NCBI RefSeq assembly: GCF_963921235.1
Contig: NC_086108.1
Coordinates: 53,942,001 to 54,006,000 of the forward strand
Length of the DNA stretch: 64,000 bases
Direction of reading: 5' to 3'
Source: Mobula hypostoma
Taxonomy: Eukaryota
The notes below the pieces were generated by a model. That model worked only from the letters and a program-made list of their open reading frames with translations. It did no database searches and had not been told where the DNA came from. Of the stretch, positions 86-63,744 are shown one piece after another; the first letter of the stretch is position 1, and each line of letters starts with the position of its first letter. Made by a program: the position numbers and the translations under genes.

Positions 86-174
86 CAGCTGCATGCTTCA
101 ACCCTCGACTCAGCCTCGCCTTTGCTCACCTCTTCATTGTTTGCGGTGATGCAAACTATGTATGTTAAAATTAT

Positions 175-364
175 AAACGCAAACAACAGGAATTCTGCAG
201 ATGCTGGAAATTCAAGCAACACACATCAAAGTTGCTGGTGAACGCAGCAGGCCAGGCAGCATCTCTAGGAAGAGGTACAGTCAACTTTTCAGGCCGAGAC
301 CCTTCGTCAGTCCTGACGAAGGGTCTCGGCCTGAAAGGTCGACTGTACCTCTTCCTAGAGATGT
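175..364. mobile_element. Fold-back mini Penelope-like element (pLTR with hammerhead, inverted arms)
   Basis: ~51-bp inverted arms 260-310 / 313-363; 16-bp TSD tgtatgttaaaattat at 159-174 and 365-380. Confidence 0.85.
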
Positions 365-599
365 TGTATGTTAAAATTATTTTTGTTTTAAAGATATTAA
401 TTCATTGGATAGTGGTATACTTTTATGTTATTTGCTAATATGAGTAGAACGTCCAATGAACTCTTCAGTGCTTGCATTTAATGTACACTGAGTATATGTC
501 AACACAGCAGTTCACTGAGGTTAGAGAAGCTTGCATTTTTGTTTTCCTGAGCACCAGATGAATCAGTGATTAATGAACAAGTGAGGAATGACACGAAAA

Positions 600-1690
600 G
601 CTCAGTGAAGCATACAAATAGGATATTGGCCTTCTTACTCAGGGACTGGAGTTTAAAAATAGTGAAGCATTGTTACAATCATATAGTGTGTCTGCACCTG
701 CAATACTGTGTACAGTTTTGACATTACAGTTTTGAAAGGATAAACTGGCATAGTACATGGGCCAGATTAACTAGGTTGATTCCTGGGATGAGAGGATTGT
801 CCGGTCACAAAAGGTTCTGTGTTCCTTTAAGTTTAGAAGGATGAGGATGATATAATTGAAATGTCAAGACATGGGAACATATGAAATGGTAGATGTTTCC
901 ACTAGTGAGCAAGTCTCAGACAAGGATGCATACATACAAGGGACAGTCATTTAAGACAAAGTTGCATAGGACTCTTTCACAGAGGATGGTGTATCTTTGA
1001 AATTTTCCAAACCAGCAGGTTGTGGAGGCTCCAATGCTCATTATTTAAAGGGAATATATTTTTGAAAGATTGGAGAACTGAGAGCTATGTGAAACTGGCA
1101 CAGAGAAAAGGATTTGAGGCTTAGGGCAATTATCCACAAACAAAGTGAACGGTGCAGCAGCCCTGAAAGATCAAAAGACCGACTTTAGCTCCTATTTTCT
1201 TTGTTCTCAAGTCTTCTATCAAAAACTTGAGTATAGAGCACCATACTGACTTACGCACTATAGGAGGGATTTTATTCTGAAGGAACGCGGAGGAGATTCA
1301 CCAGTATGTTGCCTAGATTGCTGGAAGAGATTAAATAGGTTGAGCTTGTATTCCCTTAGTGAGGGAGGTTGATAGAAGAATATTAGATCATGAGAGGCAT
1401 AGATAGGGTAGATAATCAGAATCGTATTACTGTGATAGGGTATTGAAAACAAGAAGGCAAAGGCTTAGAGTGTGAGTAAGGCGTATCAAAGGATGTGAGA
1501 GCTAATCTTTTACACAAGTGTGGTTGATACCTGGAGTACATTGCCAGTGATGGTGGTGGAATGATAACAATGATTATATTTAAAGAAGCATTTCATCAGA
1601 CATTTAAATAGCAAGGCAGAGAAGACCCGAAATGGGATCAGTATAGACAGGCAAAAAGGTCAACATGGATGTGGTGGTACCAAGTCTTCA
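600..1690 (+). mobile_element. Two degenerate CR1 LINE 3' fragments
   Basis: Decayed CR1 ORF2 C-terminus (YCVQFW, RRFTRMLPGL-like) and 3' UTR motifs. Confidence 0.7.
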
Positions 1691-1706
1691 TTTGGGGCAT
1701 TATTGC

Positions 1707-2337
1707 GGGAGGAAAAGATGGCAGCACGACGCAGCGCGCGCAGCTCTCCGGTGAAATGATATCGTATTTGTAAGTAGGATGCCGCACACAATTCTGATTT
1801 GATGGAGACAGATGTGAGAAGCACAGAGGAACATCTGGAGAAAACTTCTGAAATGCCGGGTTCACTGCCACTGTTACTGTGCGATCGAGAATCTCCAGAG
1901 GGAAGGCCCCAAAATCCCCGGCTTTGCCTGCTGCTGGTGACCGAGGCTGGGGTCGAAGCGTTCGGCAGAGATGGTGCTCGGTACTCGGTGTCGGAGGGCT
2001 GATAGGAGGCTCGAAGTTTTCGGACGACTCAGAGTCGGCCTGTGGTCGGGCATGGCAGGGAGAGTTTTTCTTCCTTCTCCCGTCTGCATGAGATGTGGGA
2101 CTTCCGAGAGACTTTGAACTTTTTTACTGTGACCATGGCCTGTTCTTCATCAAGTTATGGTATTATTGCACTGTTGTAACTATATGTTATAATTCTGTGG
2201 TTTTTGTTAGTTTTTCAGTCTTGGTCTGTCCTGTGTTTCTGTGATATCACACCAAAGGAATATTGTATCATTTCTTAATGCATGCATTACTAAATGACAA
2301 TAAAAGAGGACTGTGTGTCCTCATAATCTAATCTAAT
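1707..2337 (+). mobile_element. Non-autonomous LINE-derived retroelement, copy 1
   Basis: Starts ggga..AAGATGGC, GC-rich body, ends AATAAAA + hairpin GAGGAC-tgtgt-GTCCTC + (TAATC)n; second copy at 48555-49214 (-). Confidence 0.75.
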
Positions 2338-2371
2338 TTCAATGTTATACAACTATGACCCACTCAAAATA

Positions 2372-4400
2372 ACAACACAAAAAATATCACAAACACTGCA
2401 GATGCTGGAAATCCATACAACACACACAAAATACTGGAGGAACTCAGCAGGCCAGGCAGCACCTATGGAAAAAAGTACAGTCAGGTTGAGACCCTTCACC
2501 AGGACTGGAGAAAAAATGCTGAGGAGTAGATTTAAAAGGTGGAGTAGGGGAAAGAGAAACACAAGGAGATAGATGAAAACGGGAGGGGGAGGGATGAAGC
2601 AAAAAGCTAGTCAGTTGATTGGTGAAAGAGGTACAGGGCCGGAAAAGGGGGAGTCCGATAGGAGAGAAGAGAAAGCCATGGAAGAAAGAAAAGGAGCACC
2701 AGAGGAGAAGATAAGCAGACAAGGAGATAAGGCAAGAGAGGGAAAAGGGGATGGGGAATAGTGAAGGGGGGGGAACAGAAATCGATGTTCACACTGGGAG
2801 CACCGAGCACAGCATATGACCCCAACAACACTCACAGGTGACGTGTCACCTCACTTGGAAGGACTGTTTGGGGTCCTGAATGGTAGTGAGGGAGGAGGTG
2901 TAGGGGCAGGTGTAGTACTTGTTCTGCTTGCAAGGATAACCGCCAGGAGGAAGATCAGTGTGGAGGGACAAATGGACAAGGGAGTTGCGTACAGAGTGAT
3001 TCCTGGGGAAAGCAAAAGTGAGGGGGGCAGGGGGAAGATGTACTTGGTGGTGGGATCCCATTGGAGATGGCAGAAGTTGTGGAGAATTATGTGCTGGATG
3101 CGGAGGCTGGTGGGGTGGTAGGTGAGGACAAGAGGAACCCTATCCCTGGTAGGGTGGAGGGAAGATGGGGTAAGAGCAGACATGCGTGAAATGGAGGAGA
3201 TGCGGTTGAGGGCTGCATTGATGGTGGATTTCCTTCATTCTAGAATGAAAAGCCTCATCCTGAGAGCAGATGCAGCGGAGATGGAGGAATTCAGAGAAGG
3301 GGATGGCGCTTTTACAAGTAACAGGGTAGGAAGAGGTATAGTCCAGGTAGCTGTGAGAGTTCGTGGGTTTATAATAGGCATCGGTAGATAAGCTGTCAAC
3401 AGAGATGAGTTCTCAACACAAAAAATATTATGATTCCCCTTTCTTCCTGATTTTCTTCCCTCTTTTATTGTTTACTCTAGACACGGATATAAGTCACATA
3501 GCTTTGTAGGCATAGTGCTTGCCACACTTGCAGAAATAAGTGCAGGGAGGCAGATCTGCGGAGAGGGCTGAGTGAACAAGGGAGTTACATAGAGAGCAAT
3601 CTCTGAAGAAAGCAAAATGGGGTAGGGGAAGGAGTGAAAGATGTGCCTGATGGTAGGATTCTGTTAGAGATGGCAGAAGTTGCAATCAATGAATTGTTGG
3701 TTATCACATCAGTGGAGGCATGTGGTGTGGTAGGTGAGGACAAGGGGAACCCTATTCCGGTTACGTTTGGGGAGGATGGGGTGAGGGAAATGGAGGAGAT
3801 GAGAGGAGAGCCTCAAAAGCAGTGATGGGAAACCCTGTTTTCCGAAAAAGAAAAGGGAACATCTCAGAGTTCAGGAATAGAAAGCCTCATCCTGAGAACA
3901 GATGTGGCAGAGGCAGAGGAACTGAGAGAAGGGAATATCAGTGTGCAGGAGCAGGCAGAAACAATGGGCCTACTGGGATGGTTAGGATTATGGATCTTGG
4001 GTAGGAGGTGGAAACAAGCAGTGGGGTGTGCAGGAACTATAAGGCTGGTGGCAGTACATGGGAGATCTCCAGAAGTGATGAGGTTGGTACTGCCTGATCC
4101 TTCTTAGTAGGGTATTATTTAAGGGGTAAGAGGTGGTAACTGAGTGCGGCTATCTAGCCTCAGCGAGGTAGATGCTAGACTATAACAGCATCACCTTTGT
4201 CAGTGGGTTTGATAGTGAAGTTAAAATAGGTACAGAGAGAGTGGAGGGCAATGCATTCCCAGGAGCTGAGGTTGGATAAAGTGAGTGAGACAGTTGATGT
4301 CCTATTGGCAGTAAGAGATGAAAAGATCCAGAGCAGGCAGAAGGTCAGAGTAGACTGTCCAAGAGGAAAAGGAGAACTGAAGGTGGGAGAAAGGGTCATC
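2372..4400 (-). mobile_element. Degenerate Penelope-like element fragments (pLTR, GIY-YIG and RT remnants)
   Basis: pLTR with decayed hammerhead at ~2478-2505; RDRVPLVLTYHPTSLRIQHII (2851-3183 -); IKPTDKGDAVIV (~4180-4220 -), the PLE RT 'KPADKG' motif. Confidence 0.8.
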
Positions 4401-5300
4401 AAACTGCTCAGCCTGCTTTAGGCGACCCAGATCTCTCCTTATAATTCAAGGCCTCCAATCTGTGCAACAACTTTCTTGATCTTTTCTGCACCTTTTCCAG
4501 CTTAACCACATTTTTCCTAGGTGTGGTGACTGGAATGCTCCAAGTGCAACCTAACTAACATTCTATACACACACAAAATGCTGGTGGAACGCAGCAGGCC
4601 AGGCAGCATCTATAGGAAGAAGTACAGTTGAAATTTCTGTTGTTTTTAACATGCTGCGTTCCACCAGCATTTTGTGTGTGTTGCTTGAACTTCCAGCATC
4701 TGCAGATTTCCTTGTGTTAACATTCTATACAAGTGTAATATCCCAATTTTGTACTCAGTGCCTTGGCCAATGAAGACAAGCATGCCATACACCTTCTTCA
4801 TCATCCTGCCTGTCTGTATTGCCACTTTCAGGGAACTGTGTACTTGTACCTTAAGTGTTCAACAGCACTCCACGACTCTGCCGTTCCTTGTATATGTTCT
4901 GCCCTGGTTTGAATGTATTGCTTCACATTTTGAGTTAAATTCCATCTACCAATCCCTTGCCTATTTTCCCAGTTGATCTGTATCCTGTTCTAATCTTAGA
5001 GAACCTTCACTGTCCACTATACCACCCATTTTGCTGTCATCAACAAGCTTACTGTCATCATGCCACTACATTCTCAACCGAATCATCAATACATGACAAA
5101 CAACGGGAGACTGAACACTAATTCCTGACGAACACCACTAGAAAGCCTTGAATATGAAAAACCTTCCACAGCTAGTTTACCTCAGATCCTGTGTACTCTA
5201 ACTTTCTGGACCAGTCTACCATGTGGGACTTTGTCCAAAGCCTTGTGAAATCCTGGTAGACACCTGCTGTCCTGCCCTCATCAATTCTTTTGGTCACTTT
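4400..5300 (-). mobile_element. Degenerate CR1 LINE fragment
   Basis: Reverse-strand CR1 RT C-terminal remnants (KFADDSK, DF-KAFDKVPH-like). Confidence 0.65.
4570..4717. mobile_element. Fold-back mini Penelope-like insertion
   Basis: Inverted acacaaaatgctggtggaacgcagca / tgctgcgttccaccagcattttgtgt; 14-bp TSD taacattctataca at 4556-4569 and 4718-4731. Confidence 0.8.
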
Positions 5301-5489
5301 TGGAAAAAAAAACAATGACTTCATTGTCACACACCATCCTGACTTAGGTCCTTATTGTGGTATTAAATTCCTGGAACTGAGCAGTTTCTCAGTTGCAGTT
5401 TGGGACTTTTTTTGGTCATGGTGTCAACATTTTTTGTTGTTTTTAAAAAATTTCTTCACTTTGTATAAATCATTCATTCACAAGAAATT

Positions 5490-10594: not shown

Positions 10595-10722
10595 CACAAA
10601 CAAGAGAAAATCAGCAGATGCTGGAAATCCAAACAACTCACACAAAATGCTGGAGGAACTCAGCAGGCCAGGCAGCATCTAGGAAAAGCGTACAGTTGAC
10701 ATTTCAGGCCGAAACTCTTCAG
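10595..10722 (-). mobile_element. Mini Penelope-like pLTR fragment with decayed hammerhead
   Basis: acacacaaaatgctggaggaactcagcaggccaggcagcatct...gttgacatttcaggccgaaactcttcagca. Confidence 0.75.
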
Positions 10723-11899: not shown

Positions 11900-12073
11900 G
11901 TAGGTTTTGAATTCACAAAATTTGCGAAGTGATGCAATCATTTTTATGTGCTATAATGGTGACCTAGGAACAAGCCACTGAACTTGCACAAATTGCATAG
12001 ACAAGAGAATTTGTACAGGTATATTTCTTCCATGATACTCAGAAGGGCTCAAAAAAGATATTCATATATGTAT

Positions 12074-13455
12074 CAACACACATCAAAGTTGCTGGTGAAC
12101 TCAGCAGGCCAGGCAGCATCTCTAGGAAGAGGTACAGTCGACATTTCGGGCCGAGACCCTTCGTCAGGACCAACTGAAAGAAGGGCTAGTAAGAGATTTG
12201 AAAGTGGGAGGGGGAGGGGGAGATCCGAAATGATAGGAGAAGACAGGAGAGGGAGGGATGGAGCCAAGAGCTGGACAGTTGATTGGCAAAAGGGATATGA
12301 GAGGATCATGGGACAGGAGGCCTAGGGAGAAAGAAAAGGGGGAGGGGGGAAAAACGCAGAGGATGGGTAAGGGGTATAATGAGAGGGACAGAGGGAGATA
12401 AAGGAGAGAGAGAAAAAGAATGTGTGTACATAAATAAATAATGGATGGGGTACAAGGGGGAGGTGGGGCATTAGCGGAAGTTTAAGAAGTCAATATTCAT
12501 GCCATCAGGCTAGAGGCTACCCGGAGGGAATATAAGGTATTGTTCCTCCAACCTGAGTGTGGCTTCATCTTTACAGTAGAGGAAGCCGTGGATAGACATA
12601 TCAGAATGGGAATGGGACGTGGAATTAAAATGTGTGGCCACTGGGAGATCTTGCTTTCTGCCTACACATGCCCTTACACTTTCTCCCTTACCACCATTCA
12701 GGGCCCCAGGCAGCCCTTTCAGGTGAGGCGACACTTCACCTGTGAGTCGGCTGGGGTGATATACTGCGTCTGGAGCTCCCAATGTGGCCTTCTATATATC
12801 GGCAAGACCCAACGCAGACTGGGAGATCGTTTCGCTGAACACCTACGCTCTGTCCGCCAGAGAAAGCAGGATCTCCCAGTGGCCACACATTTTAATTCCA
12901 CGTCCCATTCCCATTCTGATATGTCTATCCACGGCTTCCTCTACTGTAAAGATGAAGCCACACTCATGTTGGAGGAACAATACCTTATATTCCGTCTGGG
13001 TAGCCTCCAGCCTGATGGCATGAACATTGATTTCTCAAACTTCCGCTAATGTCCCACTTCCCCCTCGTACCCCATTCATTATTTATTTATATACACGCAT
13101 TCTTTTTCTCTCCTTTTTCTCCCTCTGTCCCTCTCACTATACCCTTTACCCATCCTCTGCGTTTTTCCCTAGGCCTCCCGTCCTATGATCCTCTCATATC
13201 CCTTTTGCCAATCAACCGTCCAGCTCTTGGCTTCATCCCTCCCCTTCCTGTCTTCTCCTATCATTTTGGATCTCCCCCTCCCCTTCCCACTTCCAAATCT
13301 CTTACTAGCTCTTCTTTTAGTTAGTCCTGACGAAGGGTCTCGGCCCGAAACGTAGACTGTACCTCTTCCTAGAGATGCTGCCTGGCCTGCTGCGTTCACC
13401 AGCAACTTTGATGTGTGTTGAATTTCCAGCATCTGCAGATTTCCTTGTGTTTGCG
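12074..13455 (+). mobile_element. Penelope-like element, 5'-truncated with inverted partial copy (GIY-YIG endonuclease 3' end + pLTR)
   Basis: GIY-YIG frame 12661-13049 (VIYC...YIGKTQRRLGDRFAEH...VATHFN...H); inverted arms ~12074-12660 vs ~12861-13420; 13-bp TSD ttcatatatgtat at 12061-12073 and 13456-13468. Confidence 0.9.
13323..13358 (+). ncRNA. Minimal type I hammerhead ribozyme (PLE pLTR)
   Basis: AGTC-CTGACGA-AGGGTCTCGGCCC-GAAACGTA-GACT: stem I AGTC/GACT, intact CUGANGA and GAAA boxes, GUA cleavage triplet, palindromic ACGT in place of stem III. Confidence 0.75.
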
Positions 13456-13793
13456 TTCATATATGTATGTCAGTTTCAACAGCATAATGTCTTTCTACTG
13501 CAAATACTGTATTGTAAATTGGGTGACTATTATGATTAGATAACCAAGTGTGCATACAAATTCCATATGCATTTGGCCATTTAATACATTCTAATCTTTT
13601 ACTGTTATAACTTAGCAACAATATTGTTTATTTAAATATTAAGCATATTTGATTTAATTTGTTCATATAAAATTACTAGAAAATCTAATTAAAAATTTTT
13701 TTTTGATGCTACAAAGCTGGAGAAAATATAAAATGTCCTTTACATCGTCAAGAAGATTCTTCATTTGATGGGTACTCAACAACTGTGAAGCTC

Positions 13794-16700: not shown

Positions 16701-17895
16701 CTAAAATTGTGGAAATGCAGCTCAAGGTGGCTCATTATCATCTGATCAAGACAATTATGGATGGGCAAAAATGCTGGTGATGCTGGCATACCATAAAATG
16801 AATTGATAGAAAGAGGGGATTGAGGGAAGCAAGATGTTGAAAGATGGATAGTGTGGGCCCACCATTTTGTCTGACTGAGTATTGTGGTTGTTGGGCTAAT
16901 AAAGGCTATTGAGTCAAATGGCTACAGGCTACCACCTACTGGTGAAAGTTGTATGTGACCTGCATTGGAGAAGGAGAAATATTTTAATATGTGTGCTGTA
17001 ATGTTTCTGGATGTTAAGTCTGCGGTGATAGAAGCGCTATGAGTGTGTGATCCTTGAAGTAGTGATAAATGTAGTTGTACATATGAATGTTTGGTGCAAG
17101 TTGAGATTGATGGAGTCTAAGAAAATAGAACAGTACAGCACAGGTTATACACAATTATGCAGGTATATGTACCAACAACAGATGGAACAAATGAGGATAT
17201 AGATAAATTCTATGAAGAGCTTGAACAAGCAAAGAATGGATGCAAATCTCAAAATATTGTTATTGTCATGGGAGATCTAAATGCTAAAGTAGGACAAGGT
17301 GCTGATGGAAATACCATAGGAAAATTTGGACTAGGGGAAAGAAATGAAAGAGGTGAGAAATGGATAGAATGGTGCAAGATGGATAATCAGGTCATTATGA
17401 ATACCTACTTTAAAAACCATCCAAGACACTTGTGGACCTGGAAAAGTCCAGGTGATAACGTTAGAAATCAAATTGACTTCTTTACTATAAACCAAAGATT
17501 TAGAAACTCAGTGACTCAATGCAAAACATATCCAGGTGCAGACTGTAATAGTGACCATAACCCAGTAGTATGTCATGTAAAAGTAAAACTTAAAAAAATA
17601 AAGAAGCAAAAACCTGAACAATCCCTTGACTACTGGCAATTAATTGAAGAAGAAAACTTAAGACAAAAATTACAATTGAAGTAAGGAATAGATTTCAAAG
17701 TCTAGAAACAGAATCTGTTGAAGATGATAGCAATCTCGTAGAAATGAAGTTTAGCTCTCTAAAGGATGCCTTGGTAGAATCAGCAGTCAGTGATTCCTAA
17801 AAAAGAAAAAAGCACAAAGAATAAATGGATGACAGATGAAATCAAAAATCTAATGGAAGAAAGGAGATGGAAGAAAGCAAATCCTATAGAATATA

Positions 17896-20800: not shown

Positions 20801-21068
20801 TCTTCCAAACCAGTGTTACTTGAATATTCTGTGCATTTTTCAATCTTATTTTAACTCTGTCCCAACTTTTGTTGAGTGTGTTGCAGCCATCAAATTCTAA
20901 ATATGCGTATATTTACAAAATACAATTAAGTTGGTCAGTAAAACTATTGAAAATCTTTACTTTGTACTTTTGTCAGTTAAATAAAGGTTCACGTGAATTA
21001 ACATATCACAGATTTTTGTTTTTATTGCATTTTGGAAAATATCCCAACTTTTCTGGAAATGGGGTTTG
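17896..21068 (-). mobile_element. Tc1 DNA transposon (DD34E, long IR/DR-type TIRs)
   Basis: ~214-bp TIRs (17896-18109, 20855-21068), each with aaaagttggga at both ends; TA TSD at 17894-95 and 21069-70; transposase pieces MGRGSP..HTH (20719-20429), WSDES, VMVWGC, QQDNARPH..SPNLSPVE (34 residues between D and E). Confidence 0.95.
18856..20426 (-). mobile_element. Internally deleted Tigger/pogo-like DNA transposon
   Basis: Termini cagg(at/tg)tcccccgc, TA TSD at 18854-55 and 20427-28; CENP-B-type N-terminus (RKGVTLTVKLDIIKRFDRGER, ~20177-20065) joined to a Tigger C-terminal acidic remnant (DVEEVLASHHQELTDEELMQLE). Confidence 0.85.
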
Positions 21069-28065: not shown

Positions 28066-28069
28066 GGCT

Positions 28070-28640
28070 CTGGCTCTTCCCCCTTCCTCTTGAGAATATT
28101 CTGCAGGCGCTCCGAGACTTCCTGGTCTCTAGCACGTGGGAAGCAACACAACATTCTGGCATCTCTTTTTTGGCCACAGAATCTTCTATTCCCCTAACTA
28201 TCAAGACTCCTATCACTATCACTCTGCCTGACTTTACCTTTCCCTGCTGAGCTTCAGAGCTGGCTACAGTGCAATTGGCCTGGCTTCTGCTGCTGCTGTG
28301 ACCTGATAGGCCATACTCCAGCAGTATCCAAAGGTGTATACATGGTGTTAAGGGGAATGGTCACAGGGGAACCCTGAAGTGACTGCTCTCTCCCTTCACT
28401 TCAGGTGGCTACCCATCTACCATATGAAATCTGCACTCTGGGTATTACCACCCAGTGAAAGTTTCATCTGTGAGGTTTTCAAGTTCTGGATGATCCTGAG
28501 TACATCCAGCTCTCACTCCCCTTCCATGACTTTGACAGTCAGGAACATTTCCTGCTGATGTAGTCATCAGGGAGACTGTTAGGTACCCCGTAATTCCACA
28601 TCTCACAGGAGGAGCATCACCACCTGAACCATCCTGCCTA
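28070..28640 (-). mobile_element. Older CR1 ORF1 fragment
   Basis: VIGVLIVRG (GDSIVRG-like) and Cys-rich N-terminal remnants on the minus strand. Confidence 0.6.
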
Positions 28641-32994: not shown

Positions 32995-34300
32995 TTTCAA
33001 GTTCAAGTTTATTGCTATCTGATTGCACCTATATACAACCAAACGAAACAACATTCCTGCAGACCACAGTATACCCACAATACATATATCGCATGCGGGA
33101 CATTAAACATAATATTATAACAAATTACTTGATAAAATATATCTCAAAGTGCAGGTGAAGTGCACAGCAGAGGTAACAGTAAACAGCTCACTGTCCTGGT
33201 GATGAGACCTCAGTGGTGGTAGGATATTCATTGGTCTCACAGCCTGCCAAAGAAGCTGTTACCCAGCCTGGCAGTTCTAGTCCTGATGCTCCTGTACACC
33301 ACTCCTGATAGTAGTGGGCCAAAGAGATTGTGGGATGGATGGTAGGGATACTCAACAATGCTTTAGGTCCTTCAAAAACACACTCCCAGTAAATAAGGGG
33401 GAGGGAGACCCCGGCGATTATCTTGGCAGTTTTTGCTATCCTCGGTATAATCTTGCAACTTCAGTATCACTCAATGATACAGCCGGACGAGACACTCGTT
33501 GTTGTTGATGAGGCCAGCTGCTGTTGTATCATCAGCGAACTTGATGATGCGGTATGAGCTGGTTTTGACAGTGCAGTCATGAATCAGCAGTCTGAACAAC
33601 AGTGGGCTGAGCACACAGCCCTGGGGTCAGCAGTGCTCATTGTGATGGAGCTTGAAATATTGCTGCCAACTTGGGCTGATTGGGTCTTGTCTGTAAAAAA
33701 ATACAAGATCCAGTTATATAGAGGTGTGTTGAGTCCTAATGATGACACACTAGCCTCTGAGGCGTGATCATGTTAAATTCCTGGCATATGAGGCATCATT
33801 TTCTAGATGGGACAGGACGGTGGGGAGGGACGAGGCTATGGCATCATCAATGGACTGGTTTGAGTAGTAGGTGAACTGGAAAGGGTCCAATGTAGCTGAA
33901 AGGTGGGATTTTATATGAACCATTACCAGCCACTCAAAGCACTTCCTGATTATTAAGGTCAGTGCCACTGGGTGGTAATCATTTAGCCAGTTACCATCAT
34001 ACTCTTGAGCACTGGAATGAAGACAGTTGCCTTGAAGCCTACAGGGACAGTCAGCTATTGCTAGAGATCTTAAAGATGTCCACTAAGACTTCTGTTAGCG
34101 AGGCAGCATCTATTAAAACCTCCATCAAAGTTGCTGGTGAACGCAGCATCTCTAGGAAGAGGTGCAGTCGACGTTTCAGGCTGAGACCCTTCGTCAGGAC
34201 CTCTGTTAAAACCTCCATTAGTTGGGCTGCACAATCCCTTAGCACCTGACCAGGTCCTGATTTCTGATCTTAGTAGGATGATAAACTTCAAGTCATCTTA
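32995..34300 (-). mobile_element. Degenerate Rex1/Babar-type LINE
   Basis: LRDCAAQL, ALTLIIRKCFEWLV, LDPFQF, KFADD on the minus strand; tail ttcaagttcaagtttatt. Confidence 0.8.
34126..34205 (-). mobile_element. Mini Penelope-like insertion with intact antisense hammerhead
   Basis: Reverse complement GGTC-CTGACGA-AGGGTCTCAGCCT-GAAACGTC-GACT at ~34176-34201; duplicated ttaaaacctccat at 34113-34125 and 34206-34218. Confidence 0.8.
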
Positions 34301-35556: not shown

Positions 35557-36085
35557 GCTTACCTATTGACACTTGGCTTGCATGACTAAAGCCTTGAAGT
35601 AGGAGGTGCTGGCCTGGAAGAGAATGCTGGCATTGACTTGATATTGCTGCTATTGTATTACAAGTACTTTGTGGAGACATCAAAGAATTCTCCAATGCTT
35701 TGGGGGATCATTTCTTCCATCCTCAACTTTCCATTACATGTTCTCAAGGGATCCAATGACATGTACCAATTGTTGTTGCTTGAATGAAATCACTGGAGAG
35801 AGAGTTACTGGTAGATACAAAGCAGCTTCTTTATTGGACAAAACAAGGTACAGCAGGCATACGGAGACCCTTCCGATGGAAAGATCTGCTGCCCAACGTG
35901 GGGCTTGATATTTATTTGCTACACACACAAAGGACAATTCCATATTTACGAAGTATAGACAATGCTTTCTTTTGAAGCTACATACAAACTTCACACTCCC
36001 CGGTTACATCCATCCCGCTGGCGCCAGCAGCATCTGGACTGGGCTTTTAGGAATCCATTGTTCCAAACTGAATCCACAATACATT

Positions 36086-36544
36086 GGCATGAACACCGAC
36101 TTCTCTAACTTCCGCTAATGCCCCACCTCCCCCTCATACCCCATCTGTTACTTATTTTTATACACACATTCTTTCTCTTACTCTCCTTTTACTCCCTCTG
36201 TCCCTCTGAATATACCCCTTGCCCATCCTCTGGGTTCCCCCCCCCGTCTTTCTTCCTGGACCTCCTGTCCCATGATCCCCTCGTATCCTTTTTGCCTATC
36301 ACCTGTCCAGCTCTTGGCTCCATCCCTCCCCCTCCTGTCTTCTCCTATCATTTTGGATCTCCCCCTCCCCCTCCAACTTTCAAATCCCTTACTCACTCTT
36401 CCTTCAGTTAGTCCTGACGAAGGGTCTCGGCCTGAAACGTCGACTGCACCTCTTCCTAGAGATGCTGCTTGGCCTGCTGCGTTCACCAGCAACTTTTGGG
36501 TGTGTTGCTTGAATTTCCAGCATCTGCAGAATTCCTGTTGTTTT
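36086..36544 (+). mobile_element. 5'-truncated Penelope-like element (end of GIY-YIG ORF + pLTR)
   Basis: GMNTDFSNFR* followed by pLTR; 11-bp TSD cacaatacatt at 36075-85 and 36545-55. Confidence 0.9.
36410..36445 (+). ncRNA. Minimal type I hammerhead ribozyme (intact core, GUC site)
   Basis: AGTC-CTGACGA-AGG-GTCTCGG-CCT-GAAACGTC-GACT. Confidence 0.8.
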
Positions 36545-37163
36545 CACAATACATTTATTTGTTATTTTACATGCTTAACATGAAGGACAATCCATATTTA
36601 CAAAGTATAGATAATGCTGTCTTTGAAACTGCATGCAAACTTCACACCTTCACACCAGCAACATCTGGACTGGTATTCCGGTATTCACAGCTTTTAGGAA
36701 ATGCATTGTTACAACTTAAAAATTGTCAATAAACAGAAGACTGGTGGCCAAAGCCATTTGCTACGTGTGAATGACCTAAACCCAAAAATTACTCTAACAC
36801 CAATATTGGTCTACTTGAAATCCTCTGAGTTAACAGTACGCCTATACTGCATTGAGCAACAGACTATCACATAACATTTATTGCTAAGGTACAGAGTCCA
36901 TAGCTGTTATTTATGCTAAGAGGCCTTCAGAACTAGTTCTAGAATGTGAGATCAGTGGTTCTGGGCCCTATGTTGAAATGGGCCCTTCCAGTAAATAATA
37001 CATCAAAACTCATGGTCTATCAAGGGTGGTGATCCCTTATACAAGCTTTGGAGAAATGGACAACCTATAGTTTAGTGTCTAATCTTAACTTTCAAACATC
37101 TGTGCTAATTCTTTCTTTGTACCAGAATTCCTTATTGACCAGAATATTTTTTGCTTCATTAAG

Positions 37164-37950: not shown

Positions 37951-38047
37951 TAACACATACAAAATGCTGGAGGAATTCAGCAGGTCAGGCAGCATCTATG
38001 AAAAGGAATAAACAGCTGATGTATTGAGCCAAGACTGTTCATCGGGT
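37951..38047 (-). mobile_element. Decayed mini PLE pLTR fragment
   Basis: aacacatacaaaatgctggaggaattcagcaggtcaggcagcatct..., ending at a decayed hammerhead core. Confidence 0.65.
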
Positions 38048-38499: not shown

Positions 38500-40090
38500 T
38501 GGACCCAGAGAGTTACTTGCAAAGCAGTGGTCCTAGTACTGACCCTTGGGGAATAGCATACTCCAGTCTGACAAGTAGTCATATTCTATGACATACTGTC
38601 TTAAGCTATTTTTTCCTCAATTCTTACATTAACCCTTCTTTCATGAGCCTCAGTTTTATTAAGCAGTCATTTATATACTTCCCCAAAGACCATAAAAGCA
38701 GCATAAAATCTAAAAAGACAACATCTACCGTATTCCCTTTGTCAATCTTCTCTGCTGCCTCATCTAAAAATTCTAGTAATTATTCAAATATGATCTACTT
38801 TAGATAAATTTGTACCAACTTTCCTTCAGTAACCCAAATCTCTGCAGGTACCTGATAACTTTTATTCCCTGATTATTGTTTCTGAAAACATTCCCATTGC
38901 CAGTGTTAAGCTAATTGGCCTATAGTTACAACATGTGCTCTCAAACAAAGGTGTCACATTTCCCACTTTCCAATCCTCTGGCACTTTGCCTGTATCTGTG
39001 GAGATTTTTATGATTATGCTAAGACCTTCAAATATTCTGATCTCTTCCTAAACTGTAATGCAAGCCATTTTCAACAAGGCAGTGTTTCCACTGTAAAATA
39101 GACTGACCATTACAGCACATCCTAGCTATGTTTTTACCCCATCTATTTCTTCTATCACCTCTACCTCCTCTTACTTGGTTAACACCTATACAAATTACTC
39201 ATTAATGTTCTAGCTTTGTCCTGCACCTCTTCTCACCCCATTCTTTACTATCCTCTTGTTTGTTCCCTGACACTGGAACATCTTTTGATTCCTTTTTATT
39301 TTAACTACCATTCTATTTCCTGACGAAGGGTCTCGGCCTGAAACGTCGACTGCACCTCTTCCTAGAGATGCTGCCTGGCCTGCTGCGTTCACCAGCAACT
39401 TTTATGTGTGTTGATTCTATTTGCATATTCTCTTTGTCCTCTGTGAATGTTCTTCACTTCTCCTTTCACTTGAGGAGTTAAACTGACATACATAATACGT
39501 ATTTTTCTGACCAAACCCACCTACCTTCCCCAGTCAGTACATAGAACTCAATTTCCTTCTTTGTATCCATGTGCACTTAGTCCTCACCATTTTAATATAA
39601 TGTTTCTATTATTGCCACATCACATTCCTGTAAGGCTATTTGTGCTTGTACTCACCAAACTTATTCACCAGATTGTGTATTTACATACATACACTCTAAA
39701 CCTACAGTCCTTCATAGTCTGCTCTTAGCTAAATGGCACTGCCTCATATTTAGTACTGTTCCACACTCTCATTTCCTTATTACCTTTGTTTCTATATATC
39801 ACCCCCATTGCCAATTTAGATTAAATCTACATTTACACCTGTGAACCTGAGGACATTGGTCCCAGTATTACTGAGGTACAAACTGTCCTTTTGTGTATCT
39901 GCTTCCTGACCTAAACTGGTCCCAGTGATTGATAAATCTGAAACTCTGTCTCCTGCCCCAAGTCTTAAGCCATGTATGGATTAGCCTTATCTTCCTTTTA
40001 CTATTTTTTTTTGGCATAGCAGTGGCAAGAATTCCTAAATAGCTACTCCCTTTGAGGTACTTTTTATCTTCCTCCCAACTCCAGCAAGTC
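38500..40090 (-). mobile_element. Highly degenerate CR1 (RT and ORF1 remnants)
   Basis: PQGSVLGP-like, RPISLT-like and FINHWDQF remnants on the minus strand. Confidence 0.55.
39319..39413 (+). mobile_element. 95-bp mini PLE beginning exactly at the hammerhead core
   Basis: cCTGACGAagggtctcggcctGAAACGTCgactg...gtgtgttg; 9-bp TSD attctattt at 39310-18 and 39414-22. Confidence 0.85.
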
Positions 40091-40101: not shown

Positions 40102-40970
40102 TTTCAAAGTTCAAAGTAAATTTATTATCAAAGTGCATATATGTCTCCATATACAATTCTGAGATTCATTTTCTTGCAGCGATACTCAATTCATCCATAG
40201 AATAATAACCATAACAGAATCAATGAAAGGTCCCAATGAAGGGTCTCAGCCTGAAACATCAGCTGCTTACTCTTTTCCATAGATGCCACCTGGCCTGCTG
40301 AGTTCCTCCGCCATTTTATGTGGGTTGCTTGGATTTCCAGCATCTGCAGATTTTCTCTTGTTTGTGAAAGACTGCACTAATTTGGGCATTTAACCATGTA
40401 CTGTACCGAAGTCAAAAAACTGTGCAAATACAAGGAGAAAGAAATAATAATTATGATAATAAATAAATAAGCAATAAATATCAAGAACATGAGATAGTGA
40501 GTCCATAGGTTGTGGAAACATTTCATTGATTGGATAAGTGAAGTTGAGTGAAGTTATCCCCTTTGGTTCAAGAGCCTGTTGGTTGAGGGGTATTAACTCC
40601 TTGAACCTGGTAGTGTGAGTTCTGACGCTCCTGTATCACCTTCCTGATGGCAGCAGTGAGAAGAGAGCATGTCCTGGTTGGTGAGGTTCCCGTTGATGGA
40701 TGCTCTTTTCCTGCGACAGCATTTCATATAGATGTTGTCAATGGTTGGGAGGGCTTTACTGTGATCGACTGGGTCAGTATCCACTACTTTTTGTGGACTT
40801 TTCATTCAAGGCCATTGGTGTTTCCATACCAGGCTGTGATGCGGCCAGTCAATATACTCTCCACTGCACATCTATAGAAGTTTTTCAAAGTCTTAGATGT
40901 CATGCTGATTCTTTGCAACCTCCTAAGGAAGTAGAGACATTGCTGTGCTTTCTTCATAACTGCACTTATG
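40102..40970 (-). mobile_element. Rex1/Babar-type LINE 3' fragment containing a mini PLE (40230-40364, +)
   Basis: KKAQQCLYFLRRL...NFYRCAVESILTG (40802-41038 -); tail ttcaaagttcaaag; PLE flanked by tgaaag duplication. Confidence 0.8.
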
Positions 40971-55600: not shown

Positions 55601-55850
55601 TGTCCAATATTGGTGATGCTAACGAAAATTCTTATCCTACCCATTGGTACTCTCAGCTGACTATGCATGACATTAAAGCAAGAAAAAAACTTTTTCCCCT
55701 CGTTATATGATGTCATTTTATCTGTCTTCAGGTGGAACTAATGGACTCTGATGTTTCTTTACCCTGCACTCAGATCACATGATCTGCCTTTGAGTTTTGT
55801 CTGCATATATAGTAAGCACTGTATCGCAAACTCAACAATGAAAGTACTTG

Positions 55851-55998
55851 CAACACTGGACTGCTACTGAAGGGTCTCAGCTTGAAACGTCGACTCTATT
55901 CTTTTCCATAGATGCTGCCTGGCCTGCTGAGTTCCTCCAGCATTTTGTGTGTGTTGCTTGGAATAATAGCATCTGCAGATTTTCTCTTATTTGTAATC
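55851..55998 (+). mobile_element. Mini PLE pLTR insertion (hammerhead 5' box damaged)
   Basis: gaagggtctcagcttGAAACGTCgact...; 9-bp TSD aagtacttg at 55842-50 and 55999-56007. Confidence 0.8.
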
Positions 55999-56199
55999 AA
56001 GTACTTGAATATTTTCTTCAAATTACTTTCAGCTACAACTTTCATACCTCATTTAGTTCAAGAATAATAGAAATAGGAAAGCAATGACAACAGTGTCTCA
56101 GCATGGAATCAGACTCTTTGGCCCATGAAATCCACATTGATCATGAAACAGTCATTTACACTATTTATATTTTATGCTTCCCACATCGCATCAGTTCTG

Positions 56200-56429: not shown

Positions 56430-59400
56430 AATGCATTGGTTGGATAACACTTGGAGTATTGTGAGCAGTTCTGGGCCCCTTATCTAAGAAGGAATGTGCT
56501 GGCATTGGAGGTGGTCCAGAGGAGGTTCACATGAATGATCCCAGGAATGAAAGCGTTACTGTATGGAGAGCGCTTGATGGCTCTAGACCCGTACTCACTG
56601 GAGTTTAGAAGAATGATGCAGAATCTCATGAAACCTATAGAATATAGAACAGATAAGACTGGAAGTGGAGAGGATTTTTTCTAAAGTGGAGAAGTCTAGG
56701 ATCAGAGGGCACGGCCTCAGAATAGGAGGATATTCCTTTAGCAGAGTAGAGCTACTTGGACTTGATGTTTCAATCCCTATGGTAAGTCAGTACTCTTGAG
56801 GTTGGCAGTGGGCTTGGAGTGGTGACAAGGAGGGAGGGTAGGTACCTCATCGGGGTCATCAGGTGGGCACCCTCCTTTGACGTTTCGTTGATAAGCCCAC
56901 GACATCTCCAGAGGGCTCAACAGTGCTACCTGGTGTCCCAGATACACCCCCCTCAGTTCCATACTCTCCTGTCTTCATCTTGCGGCCCAGTTGTTGTCTT
57001 TCCTTTTAATCCAAATCCAATTGCTGCTTTCTTCTGCTGCATTTAACAAGGACTTGATTGCTTGTTGGAGGGAGTGACCCCTCACCTCCATCTTCCTCAA
57101 TAGACTGGTCGTAGATGTAGCTATGATTCCCCTGCATCCCACTACTACAGGGAAAGTCTTGGTCTTCCAGCCAATCTGGGCAGCTTCAATTGCCAGTTCA
57201 GAATACTTGGTCTTTTTCCTCTCATAAGCTTCTTCGACACCATCTTCCCATATGCCAGCTTGGTTGTTGTGGACCACAGGACCACATCTGACCGGTGTGT
57301 TGTAGCCGCAATGTCTGGGAGAAACACAAGCTTTTTTTCCAAGTCCACGTCCATTTTCCAATCCCAAGCAACCTGCAGAGTGCTTACAACTTTTGATGTT
57401 ATATGGCGCTTTAGAGGTTGCCCTGCTGGTACAAATCGTGTATGTGGACATTTCCTGCCGATGTTTGTGGGAGAGCATTTGTGGTGATTCACCTCTGTTC
57501 CAAAATTGATGCCAGCTGTCTGAGAACTTGCTTATGCCGCCAAGTGTACAGCCCCTGGGTGAGGCTTGTGGTGCATTCTGTTAAAATGTGCCTTAGTGAT
57601 CCAGGTGCTTGACAAAGAAAGCAAGCGGGGTCTTCTCCCCACCACTGGTTCAGGTTCTGGGGTGTTGGTAGGAGGTCATAAGTGGCTCTGATGACAAAAC
57701 TTAGCTGAGATCCCTCCACCTCCCAGATGTCACGCCAGCTAAGTTTCCTCCTTTCCAGGCTCTCCCAATTAGTCCATTGGTCCTGCTTGGCCATTGAGAC
57801 GGCCCTGGCGTTTCGCTCGGCCTCCTCCTGTCTTCTCAACTCCTCCACCACAACCCGTCTCTTCTGCACTGATGTTGCCTTGTGCCACTGAGGAGCTTTT
57901 GGGACAAGCCCAAGCCCGGCTCTCCCATGTTGGACTTGGCCAACCACATCCCTGAAGCAAAGAGCAGACTTAGCACTCTGAACGGCATCAGATGGGGTTC
58001 ACTTCCTCCCCGTTGCCACACGGGGGGCCGTTGTTCGAATAACAGTATCTTCAGATTCAGTGAGGGTCATGACCAACCTTGCTTTGGTGCATTTGAATTC
58101 TTCCTCAAGACTTGCAATTGGTAATTCCAATTTGCCGTTCCCATACAGTCCAACAGGACTTAAGCATCGCGGAAGTCCAAGCCACTGTTTTACATGTGTG
58201 CTGATCATTCTTTCGAGCTTTTCAACCTTGCTGATGGGGATTTCATACACTGTTAAAGGCCACATGAGTCTTGGAGTATGCCGAACTGGAAGCACCACAG
58301 CTTGAGTTTTCCTGGCAGTAAGGTCTTGTTGATGCGAGCTGTGTACATGATGGTATCCTTTAGTTGTTTAAACTGCTCAGTGTCCTTGAGCTTAGCATCA
58401 TACCATCGGCCCAAGCTCTTCACTGGCATTTCTGAAGCAATTGGGACAGGTGTCCCGTCAATCTGAAATCTTTTATCGGTGACTTGACCTTTGACAATGG
58501 AGATGGTTCTGCACTTGCTGGACTTGACCTTCATCCTCACCCATGTGGTGTTTTGATGAAGCTTTTCCAGAAGTCTCTTGGTGCAGGGGACAGTTATCGT
58601 CAGTATTGTTATATCGTCCATATAGGCTCATATGGGTGGTAACCGTTGACCAAACTGTAGCCTTTTTCCTCCCACAACCCATTTTGAGGCTCTGATAATG
58701 AGCTCCATTGCCATAGTGAAGGCCAATGGGGAGATGGTGCACCCTGCCATGATGCCTACTTCCAGTGGTTGCCACGTTGTGGTGAAGTCTGATGTTGTGA
58801 GACAAACTTGCAGATCCTGGAAGTAGTGTTTTACCAGATTTGTTGTTGTTGCAGGCACCTGAAAGAATTCAAAAGCAGTCCACAGTAGGAAATGAGGAAC
58901 TGATCCATAGGCGTTGGCCAGGTCGATGCAGATCCTTTCTTTCTTTCTTAGCCATCTGGATTTGATGCCATATGATGAGGGTATGTTCAAGGCATCCCAA
59001 GAAGCCTGCTATGCCAGCCTTTTGGATTGACATATCAATGAAATGGTTTTGTTTCAGATACTTTGTAAGTCTTTGCACCAACATGCTGAAAAAGATCTTG
59101 CCCTCTATGTTCAGAAGGTTTATTTGGCAAAATTGATCAATGGTGGACGAATTCTTTTCTTTTGGGATCAGAACTCCCCCCGCTCTTCTCCAGGCTTTGG
59201 GGATAACTTGCTTTTTCCCACGCGACCCTCACATTTTTCCAAAGGAATTTCAGAACATCCGGGGTGTTCTTGTAGACACAATAAGGAACACCGTTAGGGC
59301 CTGGCACTGTTGCCGATCTTGCCTTCTCCACTGCCTCTTTCACCTTGCTCAGCTTGGGAGGGCTGATGTTAAATTGATGCTGTGGGAGTGAGATTGGTGG

Positions 59401-60070: not shown

Positions 60071-61139
60071 TTTTTTTCTGAAATTATTTATCCCTAATCT
60101 CATTGTAAACAATGACAGTGTAAAGTAAAAAAATGCATATTGTTCAATACAACTGAGCTCCTGCTTGTTTTGTAGTTTCTTCTGCAAGTATGGCAATATC
60201 TAGTACAATCTCTGAAATTTGAATTTCCTCATTTTTTTCTAAATCAAAACAAAAACCTTCATCTTTTGATGGTAACAATCTCAGATTTTACATTCTGTAC
60301 GCTCATCTTTTTCTGTACACATTTTTATGCACTCATCTTTTTCTGAACAAATTGATTTCCCAAATCACAATTGCAATAAGTAAAATTTCTTTCTTCGTGC
60401 CCAATATTTTCTTCCCTCATTCACTTTTCTGGTCAAGGTACAAGAAAAGCCATTTTTATCTGACATTTGGTAGTAGTCTGTTCTTTCTAGCCTCTAATTT
60501 CTTTCATAATATATTATGTGCTTCTTTTCTGGATACTTTTGATTATGACCAGTTTCCCAAGAATTAAATACACAAAATTGTGTTTTCTTCCTTCTACCCA
60601 GAAAGTCACGATTTGGAAATTAAAATATCTCAGTTTCATACTTTAGTACATTCATTTCCAGCTTTTACTTCTTCAGTCTTTCTGCCTTGTATTCTTCACA
60701 CACTTAAAACACAAGCTTAGTGTTGTATAATTAGTTCTTTTTCTCAATTCCATTGCTTCATTTAGACAGAGTCATCAGATAGGAAAAGAGGCATGCATTA
60801 TAGAGCCTATATTTCCCAGGTGCTATTTTATAAAGTTCATAAAAACTGTCATTATACAATGGAAATTTCTGTTGAAAATCTCCATACAGCCATAGCTTTC
60901 ACTGTGAAGACTACTCTGACAGGAGACCCTGAAATAATATCTCACTAAACATTTTAGGATTATCGAGGCTTGCTGCATATTTTTGAGACTAATGGAATCT
61001 CTGAGAATACCAGGAACAGAATGGAAGATCAAAAAAAAGGGTAGATTTAGGTTGGAATTAGGAAATGATAAACTGCATTGGAAGAAAAAGCAACAAAGGT
61101 AGAAGATAATATTAACCATGAAGGACAAAAGGACTAAAC

Positions 61140-61720
61140 TCGAGATCCTGCGGATGCTGGAAATCCAGAGCAAGAAGCACAGATGCTGGCAGAACTCAGC
61201 AGATCAGGTAACATCAATGGAAGTGAATAAACAGTTAACATTTTGGGCCAAGACCCTTCATCAGGACTGGAAATGAAGGGGGAAGAAGCAAGGATAGGGC
61301 AAGGGGGAGGAGAACATGCTAGAAGGTAATAGGCAAAGCCAGGTGGGAGGGGTGGATGAAGTAAAAGGCTGGGAGGTGATAAATGGAAAAGTCAAAGGGT
61401 TGGAGAAGAAGGAATCTGATAGGAAAGGAGATTGGCTCATGGGAGAAAGGGAAGGAGGAGGGTACCAGTGGGAGGTGATAGGCAGATGAGGAGAAGAGTT
61501 AAGAGGCCAGAATAGTGTAATGAAGAAGAGGGAAGGGGAGGGGAAAAATTATGGGAAGCTGGAGGACTCAGTGTGCATGCCGTCAATTTGGAGGCTACCT
61601 GGAAAGAATATGAGGTGTTGCTCTTCCAATTTGAGTAGCTTCACCATGGGGCACGTGGACTGACATGACTGAACAGGAATGGGGATAGGAGTTGAAATGG
61701 TTGGCCACCAGGAAATTCCG
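61140..61720 (-). mobile_element. Older Penelope-like 3' fragment (pLTR + GIY-YIG end)
   Basis: Decayed hammerhead at ~61235-61268; VANHFNS and LGSLQ-like remnants on the minus strand. Confidence 0.75.
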
Positions 61721-62189
61721 CTGATGCCTAATCAAGAAAAATTGTTGCAATGAATCACACTCCTACTGTCCATCCTTTTTTTTCGACTTTGCTGCAAAAT
61801 ACTTACTTCGCCAACAGTACAAAATGTGTGAGCAGTATTTCTTCAATATAACCTTCACATTAAAGGTACAGGTTATAGGAGCTTCTGCTAATTTCCATTT
61901 ACCAATGACCAGAAACATGAATAGTTACAGAAGGTACAGGAGCAGGTTAGAGGCTAGTAATTTTGTGGCAAGTGCCTCACCTCCTTCCTCTTTAAAGTCA
62001 TTTCAAGACCAGATCAGGAGTACACTGGAATATACTCCATTTGCAAGTTTATATGTACTACGTCGACTCAGTCCTTCCTATGCAAGGCATAGAAGGCATT
62101 ATATGTAGCTCCAAAAAAAAAAATCAATGAATGCTCTGAAACCTGTCACATGACCTACTGCTAGTTGATCAAATGTGATCAAGGCTCTA

Positions 62190-62630
62190 GAAATATAGAA
62201 CAGGTACGGGCCTTTCACCCCACAATGTCTGTGCTGAAGTCAATGCCAAATCAAACTAAATCTCTTCAGCCTGTTCAAGATCCATATCCCTCCATTCCCT
62301 AGATATTTGTGTATCTACATATATAAAAGCCTCTAAGTACAACTATCATATCTGCTTCCACCTCTACCCTTGGCAGCCTTTTCCAGGCGGCTACTATTCT
62401 CTGCATAATGACATTTTCCCTCTCTCACCTTAAATTCATGTCCTTTAGAATTTGACATTTCTACCCTGGGAAGAAGATTCTGACTGGCTATGACTCTCAT
62501 AATTGTATAAACTTTCTCTGCAGCAGTTCCTTCCGCTGCAGAGAAAGGAACCACTGCTCAGACCAATAAAGCCAAACATAGCTTCTTTACTGCCTTATTG
62601 TGGCCACTTTCAGGGAGCTATGGACCATCC
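62190..62630 (-). mobile_element. Degenerate CR1 3' fragment
   Basis: VYTIMRVI..KGHEFKVR on the minus strand; tail tctatatttctag. Confidence 0.65.
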
Positions 62631-63359
62631 TAGAAATAGATAAATAGACGATACAATTTTAAATAACCATGGAAATTAGTACTTCATCAATAAGGACTGT
62701 GGAGTACCCTCCTCAAATTCAGCTGTGTGGAGAAATTGAAAAATACAAGGGGAAAGGCCTTACACTCAACATATTCATTTCAGTTTCTTGAAACTTTCTG
62801 GTCTCTCTTCTTTTCAATGAGTAAAATTTCCTGTGAGTTTATTTAAACTGCAGAATTGTCTTATGCTCTGAATGTGTAGAGTTGAACTGCCAGAAAGGGT
62901 GAAGGGAATTCAAAACCTAGCGGCAACACTGACAATCATAAGGTTTATACGTGTGATTTTGCTCATTTTGCTCTCATGGCTTTACTGCAAATTTTCTCCA
63001 AAGTGAAAAAAATTAAGATGGTAGTGTTAAGATTGCAGTACAGCTGTAGGGATCGATCAGGGAACAGCAATGTAGTAGGTGCTGCCAGAGATCTGCATGC
63101 ATTTTTATCTTCATTATAGGCTGACTGAAATGAATGGAGAATAGTTATAACGTCCTGAAATACTAGGCATCATAATGATAGTCTTGCAAGAATAGTACCA
63201 ACCCAGACACTGCTAGCTGTATTAACGAGTCTATCCCTTTCATTCATTCAGCGCCTTATATTGGCAAAGTTAAATATTTCATTTCCTGCTGAAAATCTGA
63301 AATAAAACAGAAGATGTTGTGAACAGTAATGTAAAGATACCCAAATAACATATTTTACT

Positions 63360-63566
63360 CATAAACACAAAATAATCTGCAGATGCTGGGGTCAAAGCAA
63401 CACTCAGAACACGCTGGAGGAACTCAGCAGGTCGGGCAGCATCCATGGAAAAGATCGGTCGACATTTTGGGCCGGAACCCTTCGTCGGGTTCCGGCCCGA
63501 AATGTCGACCGATCTTTTCCATGGATGCTGCCGACCTGCTGAGTTCCTCCAGCGTGTTCTGAGTGT
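63360..63566. mobile_element. Fold-back mini Penelope-like element (second subfamily)
   Basis: ~81-bp inverted arms 63399-63480 / 63487-63567, loop ttcgtc; 14-bp TSD taacatattttact at 63346-59 and 63567-80. Confidence 0.85.
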
Positions 63567-63744
63567 TAACATATTTTACTATTGTGTTGGAGGGATTAAT
63601 ATTGGCTAACTTAAAATAAGGTATTATTTATGAGCCAGAGGAAGCCATTCACTCCTTCAAGCCAGGTCTGATTAACAAGATTATGGCTGATCTGACTTTA
63701 AACAGAATCTTGACAATCTGAATGCTCTCATCATATTTACATAG

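Follow-up and report, generated by a model that had tools for sequence, protein, structure and literature searches.

Short insertions in a ray genome as probable truncated 3' ends of a Neptune-clade Penelope-like element, with 5' ends crowded at a hammerhead helix

A 64,000-nucleotide stretch of the Mobula hypostoma genome (assembly GCF_963921235.1, contig NC_086108.1, positions 53,942,001 to 54,006,000; hereafter, the window) is scattered with copies of one pseudo-long terminal repeat (pLTR)-type sequence that contains a hammerhead ribozyme motif. Do the many short copies form a mobile family of their own, or are they by-products of a Penelope-like element (PLE)? BLASTN and local alignment revealed 17 arms of this repeat at 13 loci in the window, and judged by sequence the repeats are the 3' ends of a Neptune-clade PLE with a C-terminal GIY-YIG endonuclease (EN). 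The short copies are probably 5'-truncated versions of these ends, made singly by the reverse transcriptase (RT)/GIY-YIG protein, with copying that ran off the template at helix I of the hammerhead.

The element and its copies

The coding remnants of the long copies indicate the source of the repeat. A Pfam scan of the right arm of the 12061 locus detected a GIY-YIG domain at 12486-13046 (PF01541, E 3e-5), and the proteins closest to this endonuclease remnant are from Mobula hypostoma (88% identity) and Hypanus sabinus (84%). The homologous ray proteins consist of RT, then a C-x4-C-x2-C linker, then EN. This linker is present in the 88%-identical protein (P0001), and the copy at 2382, which carries RT-thumb, linker and EN remnants, has it at 2903-2935 with one Cys decayed. 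A Cys linker marks the Neptune and Nematis clades in passages of PMC8557442. The initial annotation had derived the repeats from PLEs, and this origin is upheld because the long copies with EN/RT remnants in their open reading frame (ORF) share the terminal sequence.

The other Neptune-clade traits found here are a terminal-repeat hammerhead, a tail on one end, an inverted partial copy and target site duplications (TSDs). The passages of PMC8557442 and PMC3846280 on EN-containing Neptune-clade PLEs likewise describe a C-terminal GIY-YIG, a Cys-rich RT-EN linker, a terminal-repeat hammerhead, 5' truncation, an inverted partial copy, an optional one-end tail of 30-40 bp and variable TSDs, whereas a sharp 5' edge at helix I is absent from them. 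The element adds a ray member to a clade already described, and its observed behaviour is for the most part known. No full-length pLTR-ORF-pLTR partial-tandem copy was found in the window. A second, more diverged RT piece (3509-4064, minus strand; 71% DNA identity to the 2382 copy) lies behind that copy and could stem from an earlier PLE insertion or from a partial tandem.

The repeat occurs at one locus per 4.9 kb, in good agreement with the earlier estimate of about 12 copies at roughly one per 5 kb. The initial annotation also called the insertions tiny and most of them non-coding. The small size holds at nine of the 13 loci (≤210 bp), but the other four are long (12061, 1.38 kb; 36075, 459 bp; 61134, about 590 bp; and 2382); of these, 12061 encodes the GIY-YIG domain and 2382 reaches RT-thumb/EN sequence.

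5' ends at helix I

Relative positions are counted from the first C of CUGANGA (position 0), which is 36414 in the reference copy, 36075..36555. The motif lies on the ORF strand, downstream of a pyrimidine-rich 3' untranslated region (UTR), and by its core and helices it is a predicted minimal type I hammerhead. The 5' arm of helix I (36409-36413) is followed by CUGANGA, an extra A, a 4-bp helix II, GAAA and a palindromic, loopless helix III, with predicted cleavage after 36441 (+27/+28). Minimal PLE hammerheads, as described in passages of PMC4209133, share the extra base after position 9, the 4-5 bp helix I and the loopless palindromic helix III that needs a dimer, and their genomic copies are also mostly single or opposite-strand pairs 100-700 bp apart; the commonest closing pair of helix II here is G-U (six of nine copies) rather than G-C.

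The description of the insertions as hammerhead-carrying holds in that such a motif is present, but it is seldom complete. The core, GAAA, NUH and all three helices were kept in four of the 14 scored arms (12061L, 12061R, 34113 and 36075), and a single one of the 12 short arms (34113) has the whole hammerhead; the unscored arms (4556L, 4556R and 63346R) are without CUGANGA. Across nine copies, 90.7% of hammerhead positions were paired, compared with 18-47% in slid controls. Two-sided changes were seen in none of the ten hammerhead pairs across nine close copies of little divergence, nor in any of the 21 pairs evaluated with RNAalifold, an absence of covariation that carries little weight because the copies are too little diverged. 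No hammerhead family was matched in Rfam, with no match of any kind at the gathering score; one match to a bacterial small RNA (E 0.007) was discarded as being at chance level. The lowest-energy monomer folds of the longer copies do not show the hammerhead, which is uninformative because this ribozyme class is dimeric and protein-assisted.

The 5' ends of ten of the 17 arms fall within a 12-nt window from about -4 to +8 (159L, 0 to +2; 159R, -4 to -2; 34113, -3; 39310, -2; 40230, -3; 37953, -1; 63346L, -1 to +2; 63346R, +8; 10597 and 55842, about +5). Outside it are 4556L (+20 or +28), 4556R (+61) and five arms that reach -329 or beyond. None of the 17 arms ends between -6 and -328, though such copies are easy to detect, and at most one ends at the predicted cleavage site. 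When truncation was simulated as exponential, with its mean set to 60 nt, to 100 nt or to the value observed, a cluster of this kind was rare for all arms (P<1e-5 to 0.0009), and for a strict set of eight loci with TSDs of at least 9 bp, five of which end in a 9-nt window (P 0.0003 to 0.014). The edge is set by a TSD or a fold-back junction at 159, 34113, 39310, 55842 and 63346. Over the 25 upstream bases, short arms share at most 13 with any long copy while long copies of the same type share 20-23, indicating that divergence alone does not account for the short arms, which were cut; the 39310 row of this comparison was offset by one base. At 159 and at 63346 the two arms both stop inside the zone, and both 12061 arms pass it. 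Identical junctions had been proposed as the sign of an independent mini-element and unique ones as that of one-off events; the junctions are unique, yet the 5' ends crowd into one zone. The literature searched, which covered few subscription papers and did not extend to repeat databases, contained no report of a 5' edge fixed at helix I.

Ordinary random 5' truncation, with the cluster arising from detection and from subfamily divergence upstream of a conserved hammerhead, is an unlikely explanation. Heavy 5' truncation is indeed known for PLEs (passages of PMC8557442), and the subfamilies are unlike one another upstream, with only 3-11 of 25 bases identical. However, the edges at the five loci named above are fixed by a TSD or junction and not by fading of the alignment, and the strict-set probabilities and the empty interval also argue against it. 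It keeps some credence because the sample is one window.

Of four sequencing runs compared with the reference interval 36065-36565, two (X21 and X22) yielded no reads, and run X1, from a related genome, yielded 114,276 contigs. The best 12 of 709 loose-end positions include the tail end, supported by 375 contigs at an agreement of 0.41, and position -4, supported by 222 at 0.39; such low agreement suggests mixed flanks. Among the best 12 of 64 joints, one connects 36520 to 36410, i.e., +106 via a single extra G back to -4, head-to-tail. Its depth was 310, compared with 54-76 for the other X1 joints among those 12; this single observation makes a short tandem unit possible. Pattern scans of viral, metagenome and genome contigs detected no related locus, and 72 viral loci (16-mer) and one bacterial locus had matches of only 18-24 nt, which were taken as chance.

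What could set the edge at this position? A pyrimidine tract is closed by YAG at -5 to -3, at the 5' arm of helix I, in four of five long arms. By their consensus motifs, tract and YAG together presumably fit a 3' splice site and an initiator-like element alike. The edge may be set by a transcription start at the initiator-like site, which we put forward tentatively, or by an intron boundary, which is possible to a slightly lesser degree. An RT stall or nuclease stop at a protein-bound helix I appears more doubtful, and some other cause improbable. In Drosophila virilis, the Penelope intron stops where helix I begins on its 5' side (passages of PMC4209133), so the same spot is a boundary in another PLE; that intron lies 46 nt after the start, and the transcripts are mostly spliced (passages of PMC2377424). 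The short copies have no shared first exon, which counts against a plain spliced template.

The terminal sequence also occurs in frame in four Mobula gene models (P0017, P0018, P0019 and P0022, listed as GALNT16-like, STARD3NL, a protein without a name and CoA synthase), hinting at exonisation or annotation artefacts. Judged from protein sequences only, without exon coordinates, the start within P0019 fits an acceptor at -6. The other three do not, as the sequence starts near -13 in P0018 and near +45 in P0017, and forms the N-terminus of the model in P0022.

Inverted insertions, tails and a proposed route

Exact duplications of 16, 14, 13, 13, 11, 9, 9 and 14 bp flank the loci 159, 4556, 12061, 34113, 36075, 39310, 55842 and 63346, respectively, confirming the eight that had been annotated. 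With the same search slack, only seven of 1500 random intervals reached 9 bp, one reached 11 and none reached 13, and the TSDs are therefore far above chance. They are also AT-rich, as previously stated (80% A+T, versus 59% for the window). The 6-bp matches at 10597 and 40230 are at chance level (P 0.14), and no duplication was found at 2382, 37953 or 61134. The four reported inverted duplications are real, with arm identities of 51/54 (159), 30/30 (4556), 528/560 (12061) and 79/80 (63346). An apparent inversion within the 61134 copy was rejected, as the query itself contained an inverted arm.

The 3' ends are of two main kinds. Ten of the 17 arms extend to the tail end at about +125 to +135, five stop at an earlier point (end A, +89 to +93) and two end internally; each of the four inverted insertions has exactly one tailed arm. 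In most copies, a stem predicted at 36478-36525 and its equivalents joins the tail to the bases preceding end A and sets end A in its loop, without covariation support. Two junctions have further features. At 55842, a 17-bp filler resembles a collapsed inverted arm, with an end A hexamer beside a hexamer of positions -5 to 0; this was noticed post hoc, and read in this way the locus may be a fifth inverted insertion. The fold-back junction of 4556 (4630-4657) contains the first six TSD bases together with a tail-like piece and an octamer that is palindromic, which suggests an extra template switch.

These products resemble those known for other PLEs. Passages of PMC8557442 and PMC3846280 describe a one-sided tail, an inverted partial copy, TSDs of 8-10 bp and 5' palindromes. 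According to passages of PMC11167929, PAc, a Poseidon element of Anolis carolinensis, nicks AT-rich DNA in vitro and extends from either strand, begins RT at two internal positions between which the tail lies, requires downstream RNA and uses uncleaved RNA as its dominant substrate. With both-strand nicking, two RT starts and the described PLE traits, one would expect fold-backs, tails and TSDs rich in A+T; inverted arms, the one-sided tail of ~35 bp and minimal hammerheads are thus already published PLE traits, and we accept the earlier proposal that a PLE enzyme inserted these copies and their inverted partial copies. PAc and the ray element share tail-bounding RT starts about 90-130 nt past the hammerhead, priming on both strands, AT-rich targets and a hammerhead cleavage that is apparently unused. 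They differ in clade, in the start site (AC-rich in PAc, GU-rich at end A here) and in the ORF, which begins in the hammerhead in PAc, whereas the corresponding frame here hits a stop inside the tail.

In the route that we propose, the RT/GIY-YIG protein would nick both strands of AT-rich target DNA, and target-primed reverse transcription, primed on each of the target strands, would begin at two internal sites that lie shortly after the hammerhead and immediately beyond the upstream pLTR. Copying would then run off the 5' end of the RNA at the base of helix I. One primed end would give a solo copy of 80-135 bp, two primed ends joined by 2-3 nt of microhomology would give a fold-back, and a nick stagger of 9-16 bp would give the TSD. 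The competent RT start is likely to be the upstream pLTR-ORF junction, because the enzyme tested in vitro needs downstream RNA. The first product would be a short, strong-stop-like cDNA, and the short copies would be those inserted without continuing; without downstream RNA of their own they are probably dead on arrival.

Two familiar processes offer a comparison. Retroviral minus-strand strong-stop DNA is a short first cDNA that ends at the RNA 5' end, and in L1 twin priming two primers give an inverted insertion. Both are analogies of how the process works only, as no tRNA primer or integrase is involved here and, unlike in twin priming, both arms copy the same stretch. As a more tentative extension, which may well not hold, the short copies could be a fossil record of a strong-stop intermediate, in which RT has reached a fixed RNA boundary at helix I and can make a long copy only by jumping to the downstream pLTR.

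Several points weigh against run-off at helix I. The sample is small (one window, 13 loci), and the concordance of arms (three pairs) is not significant by itself. The breakpoints of 159L, 159R and 39310 were set by hand from the TSD or junction where the aligner had overshot through microhomology or chance, those of 10597, 55842 and 37953 are soft, and the cleavage site is one possible end of 4556L. The edge was read from genomic copies and not from RNA, and the requirement for downstream RNA comes from a Poseidon element with AC-rich starts, its transfer to Neptune being assumed. In the related genome, the -4 loose-end consensus resembles the upstream sequence of a third subfamily (61134 type), the same confound that favours random truncation, so long copies from other subfamilies may make up some or most of the 222 contigs; depth steps of 2.4x and 5.9x were rejected as confounded by local identity.

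An independent, non-autonomous SINE- or retrozyme-like mini-element of about 95-135 bp, starting from the hammerhead, with its own masters and mobilized by the PLE enzyme, appears improbable. The high density, similar sizes and common 5' edge would suit it, as would the head-to-tail joint at depth 310 if this is a tandem unit, and non-autonomous PLE derivatives and PLE-derived retrozymes have been published (passages of PMC8557442; bioRxiv 10.64898/2026.07.22.740005). The latter links retrozymes to PLE pLTRs and reports them in one chondrichthyan. Like the short copies, animal non-LTR retrozymes are PLE pLTR-related and non-coding with a type I hammerhead, and their own traits are head-to-tail arrays of 150-450 bp units, complete hammerheads and circular RNA (passages of PMC7229834 and the same preprint). 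Among the repeats of the window, however, neither a head-to-tail array nor a complete hammerhead per unit was found: none of nine TRF rows contains the repeat, same-strand adjacent units are absent, and 11 of the 12 short arms are without the whole hammerhead. The short arms also lack RNA downstream of the RT starts. Moreover, no two insertions share both junctions. The short arms span at least three sequence types, the same as the long ORF-linked arms, and the best-resolved group of the tree (93/98 support) mixes three short and three long arms, with nine of the 12 inner branches unresolved. The initial annotation's separate class, MITE-looking (miniature inverted-repeat transposable element) and retrozyme-like, is therefore not supported by this window, given the lack of a tandem unit, the unique junctions, the shared types and the cut hammerheads.

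Formation of the fold-backs by self-priming of the cDNA at a mirror of helix I, or from hammerhead-cleaved RNA, is very unlikely. The cDNA can form a 4-5 bp mirror, but self-priming predicts a second arm near +33, and those observed start at -4 to -2, +8, +61 and about -667 (none of four). Cleaved RNA could account for 4556L if it ends at +28, but for at most this one of 17 arms, and uncleaved RNA dominates in vitro (passages of PMC11167929). Inverted copies as MITEs moved by a DNA transposase, for all their short, palindromic, non-coding and TSD-flanked look, are hardly credible given TSDs of 13-16 bp, sizes of 148, 190, 207 and 1382 bp, unequal arms (one tailed), structures that are each unique and a sequence that is a retroelement 3' end.

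Table 1 Copies of the repeat in the window and their features (relative positions as defined in the text).
Locus	Feature	Positions	Strand	Description
159	Inverted insertion	159..380	both	190 bp inside 16-bp TSDs (159-174, 365-380); left arm (-) tail end to 0..+2, right arm (+) -4..-2 to about +50
2382	Long decayed copy	2382..4064	-	Tail, hammerhead with 8-bp deletion, 3' UTR, EN, Cys linker, RT thumb up to about 3400, then second RT piece 3509-4064; no TSD found
4556	Inverted insertion	4556..4731	both	148 bp inside 14-bp TSDs; without CUGANGA; left arm without tail and with an ambiguous 5' end (+20 or +28), right arm from +61 to tail
10597	Short copy	10598..10722	-	About +5 to tail; decayed core; 6-bp duplication at chance level
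12061	Inverted insertion	12061..13468	both	1382 bp inside 13-bp TSDs; both predicted hammerheads complete; left arm 12074-12659 (-) tail-less, right arm 12660-13455 (+) tailed
12061	C-terminal GIY-YIG endonuclease coding remnant	12663..13049	+	88% identity to Mobula hypostoma Neptune-type protein
34113	Short copy	34113..34218	-	-3 to about +87; 80 bp inside exact 13-bp TSDs
36075	5'-truncated copy, reference	36075..36555	+	459 bp, -329 to tail, inside 11-bp TSDs
36075	Pyrimidine tract	36384..36413	+	76-92% C+T in five long arms
36075	Minimal type I hammerhead, predicted	36409..36446	+	From sequence; architecture as in passages of PMC4209133
36075	~35-bp tail	36508..36543	+	Between end A (36507) and end B (36543-36546)
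37953	Old short copy	37953..38046	-	About -1 to end A; without TSD; 5' edge uncertain
39310	Short copy	39310..39422	+	-2 to end A; 95 bp inside 9-bp TSDs; core intact, 5' arm of helix I cut
40230	Short copy	40230..40364	+	-3 to tail; decayed core; 6-bp duplication at chance level
55842	Short copy	55842..56007	+	About +5 to tail, inside 9-bp TSDs; 17-bp filler
61134	Long copy, third sequence type	61137..61722	-	About 590 bp, running from the EN tail to the 3' end; without TSD
63346	Inverted insertion	63346..63580	both	207 bp inside 14-bp TSDs; core broken; left arm from tail to -1..+2, right arm from +8 to end A

Other mobile elements were also observed in the window. A Tc1/mariner-like element (17888-21076) with 222-bp terminal inverted repeats (97%) and a DDE_3 remnant is nested in an RTE-like long interspersed element (LINE), of which an endonuclease piece (17121-17684) and an RT piece (21848-22534) flank it. 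Pieces of a CR1-like LINE form a large inverted arrangement at 24406-30710, the arms being 86-92% complementary. A broken non-LTR element at 56975-59008 (minus strand) has RT-like and restriction-like endonuclease-type frames, had no Pfam match in the one frame scanned, and looks like a member of the HERO/R2 group.

Meaning for PLE replication

The later steps of PLE replication are called unvalidated in passages of PMC11167929. Among the questions at stake are how internal RT initiation leads to partial-tandem copies, why PLEs keep introns and what their hammerhead does. The possible templates make different predictions: a circular one would give no fixed stop, a cleaved one a stop at +28, and a linear one with strand transfer a sharp edge where the RNA begins. 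Should the edge not persist across the genome, the short copies would be ordinary truncated PLE debris.

If, instead, the short copies do record a strong-stop intermediate, this would explain the tail and would make strand transfer on a linear template a better account than a circle made by the hammerhead. It would also explain intron retention if the boundary is a splice site, the 5' end being spliced and the 3' repeat unspliced, and jumps onto a further short template would offer a way for retrozyme arrays to form. With a family this dense, the template question is directly testable on public ray assemblies.

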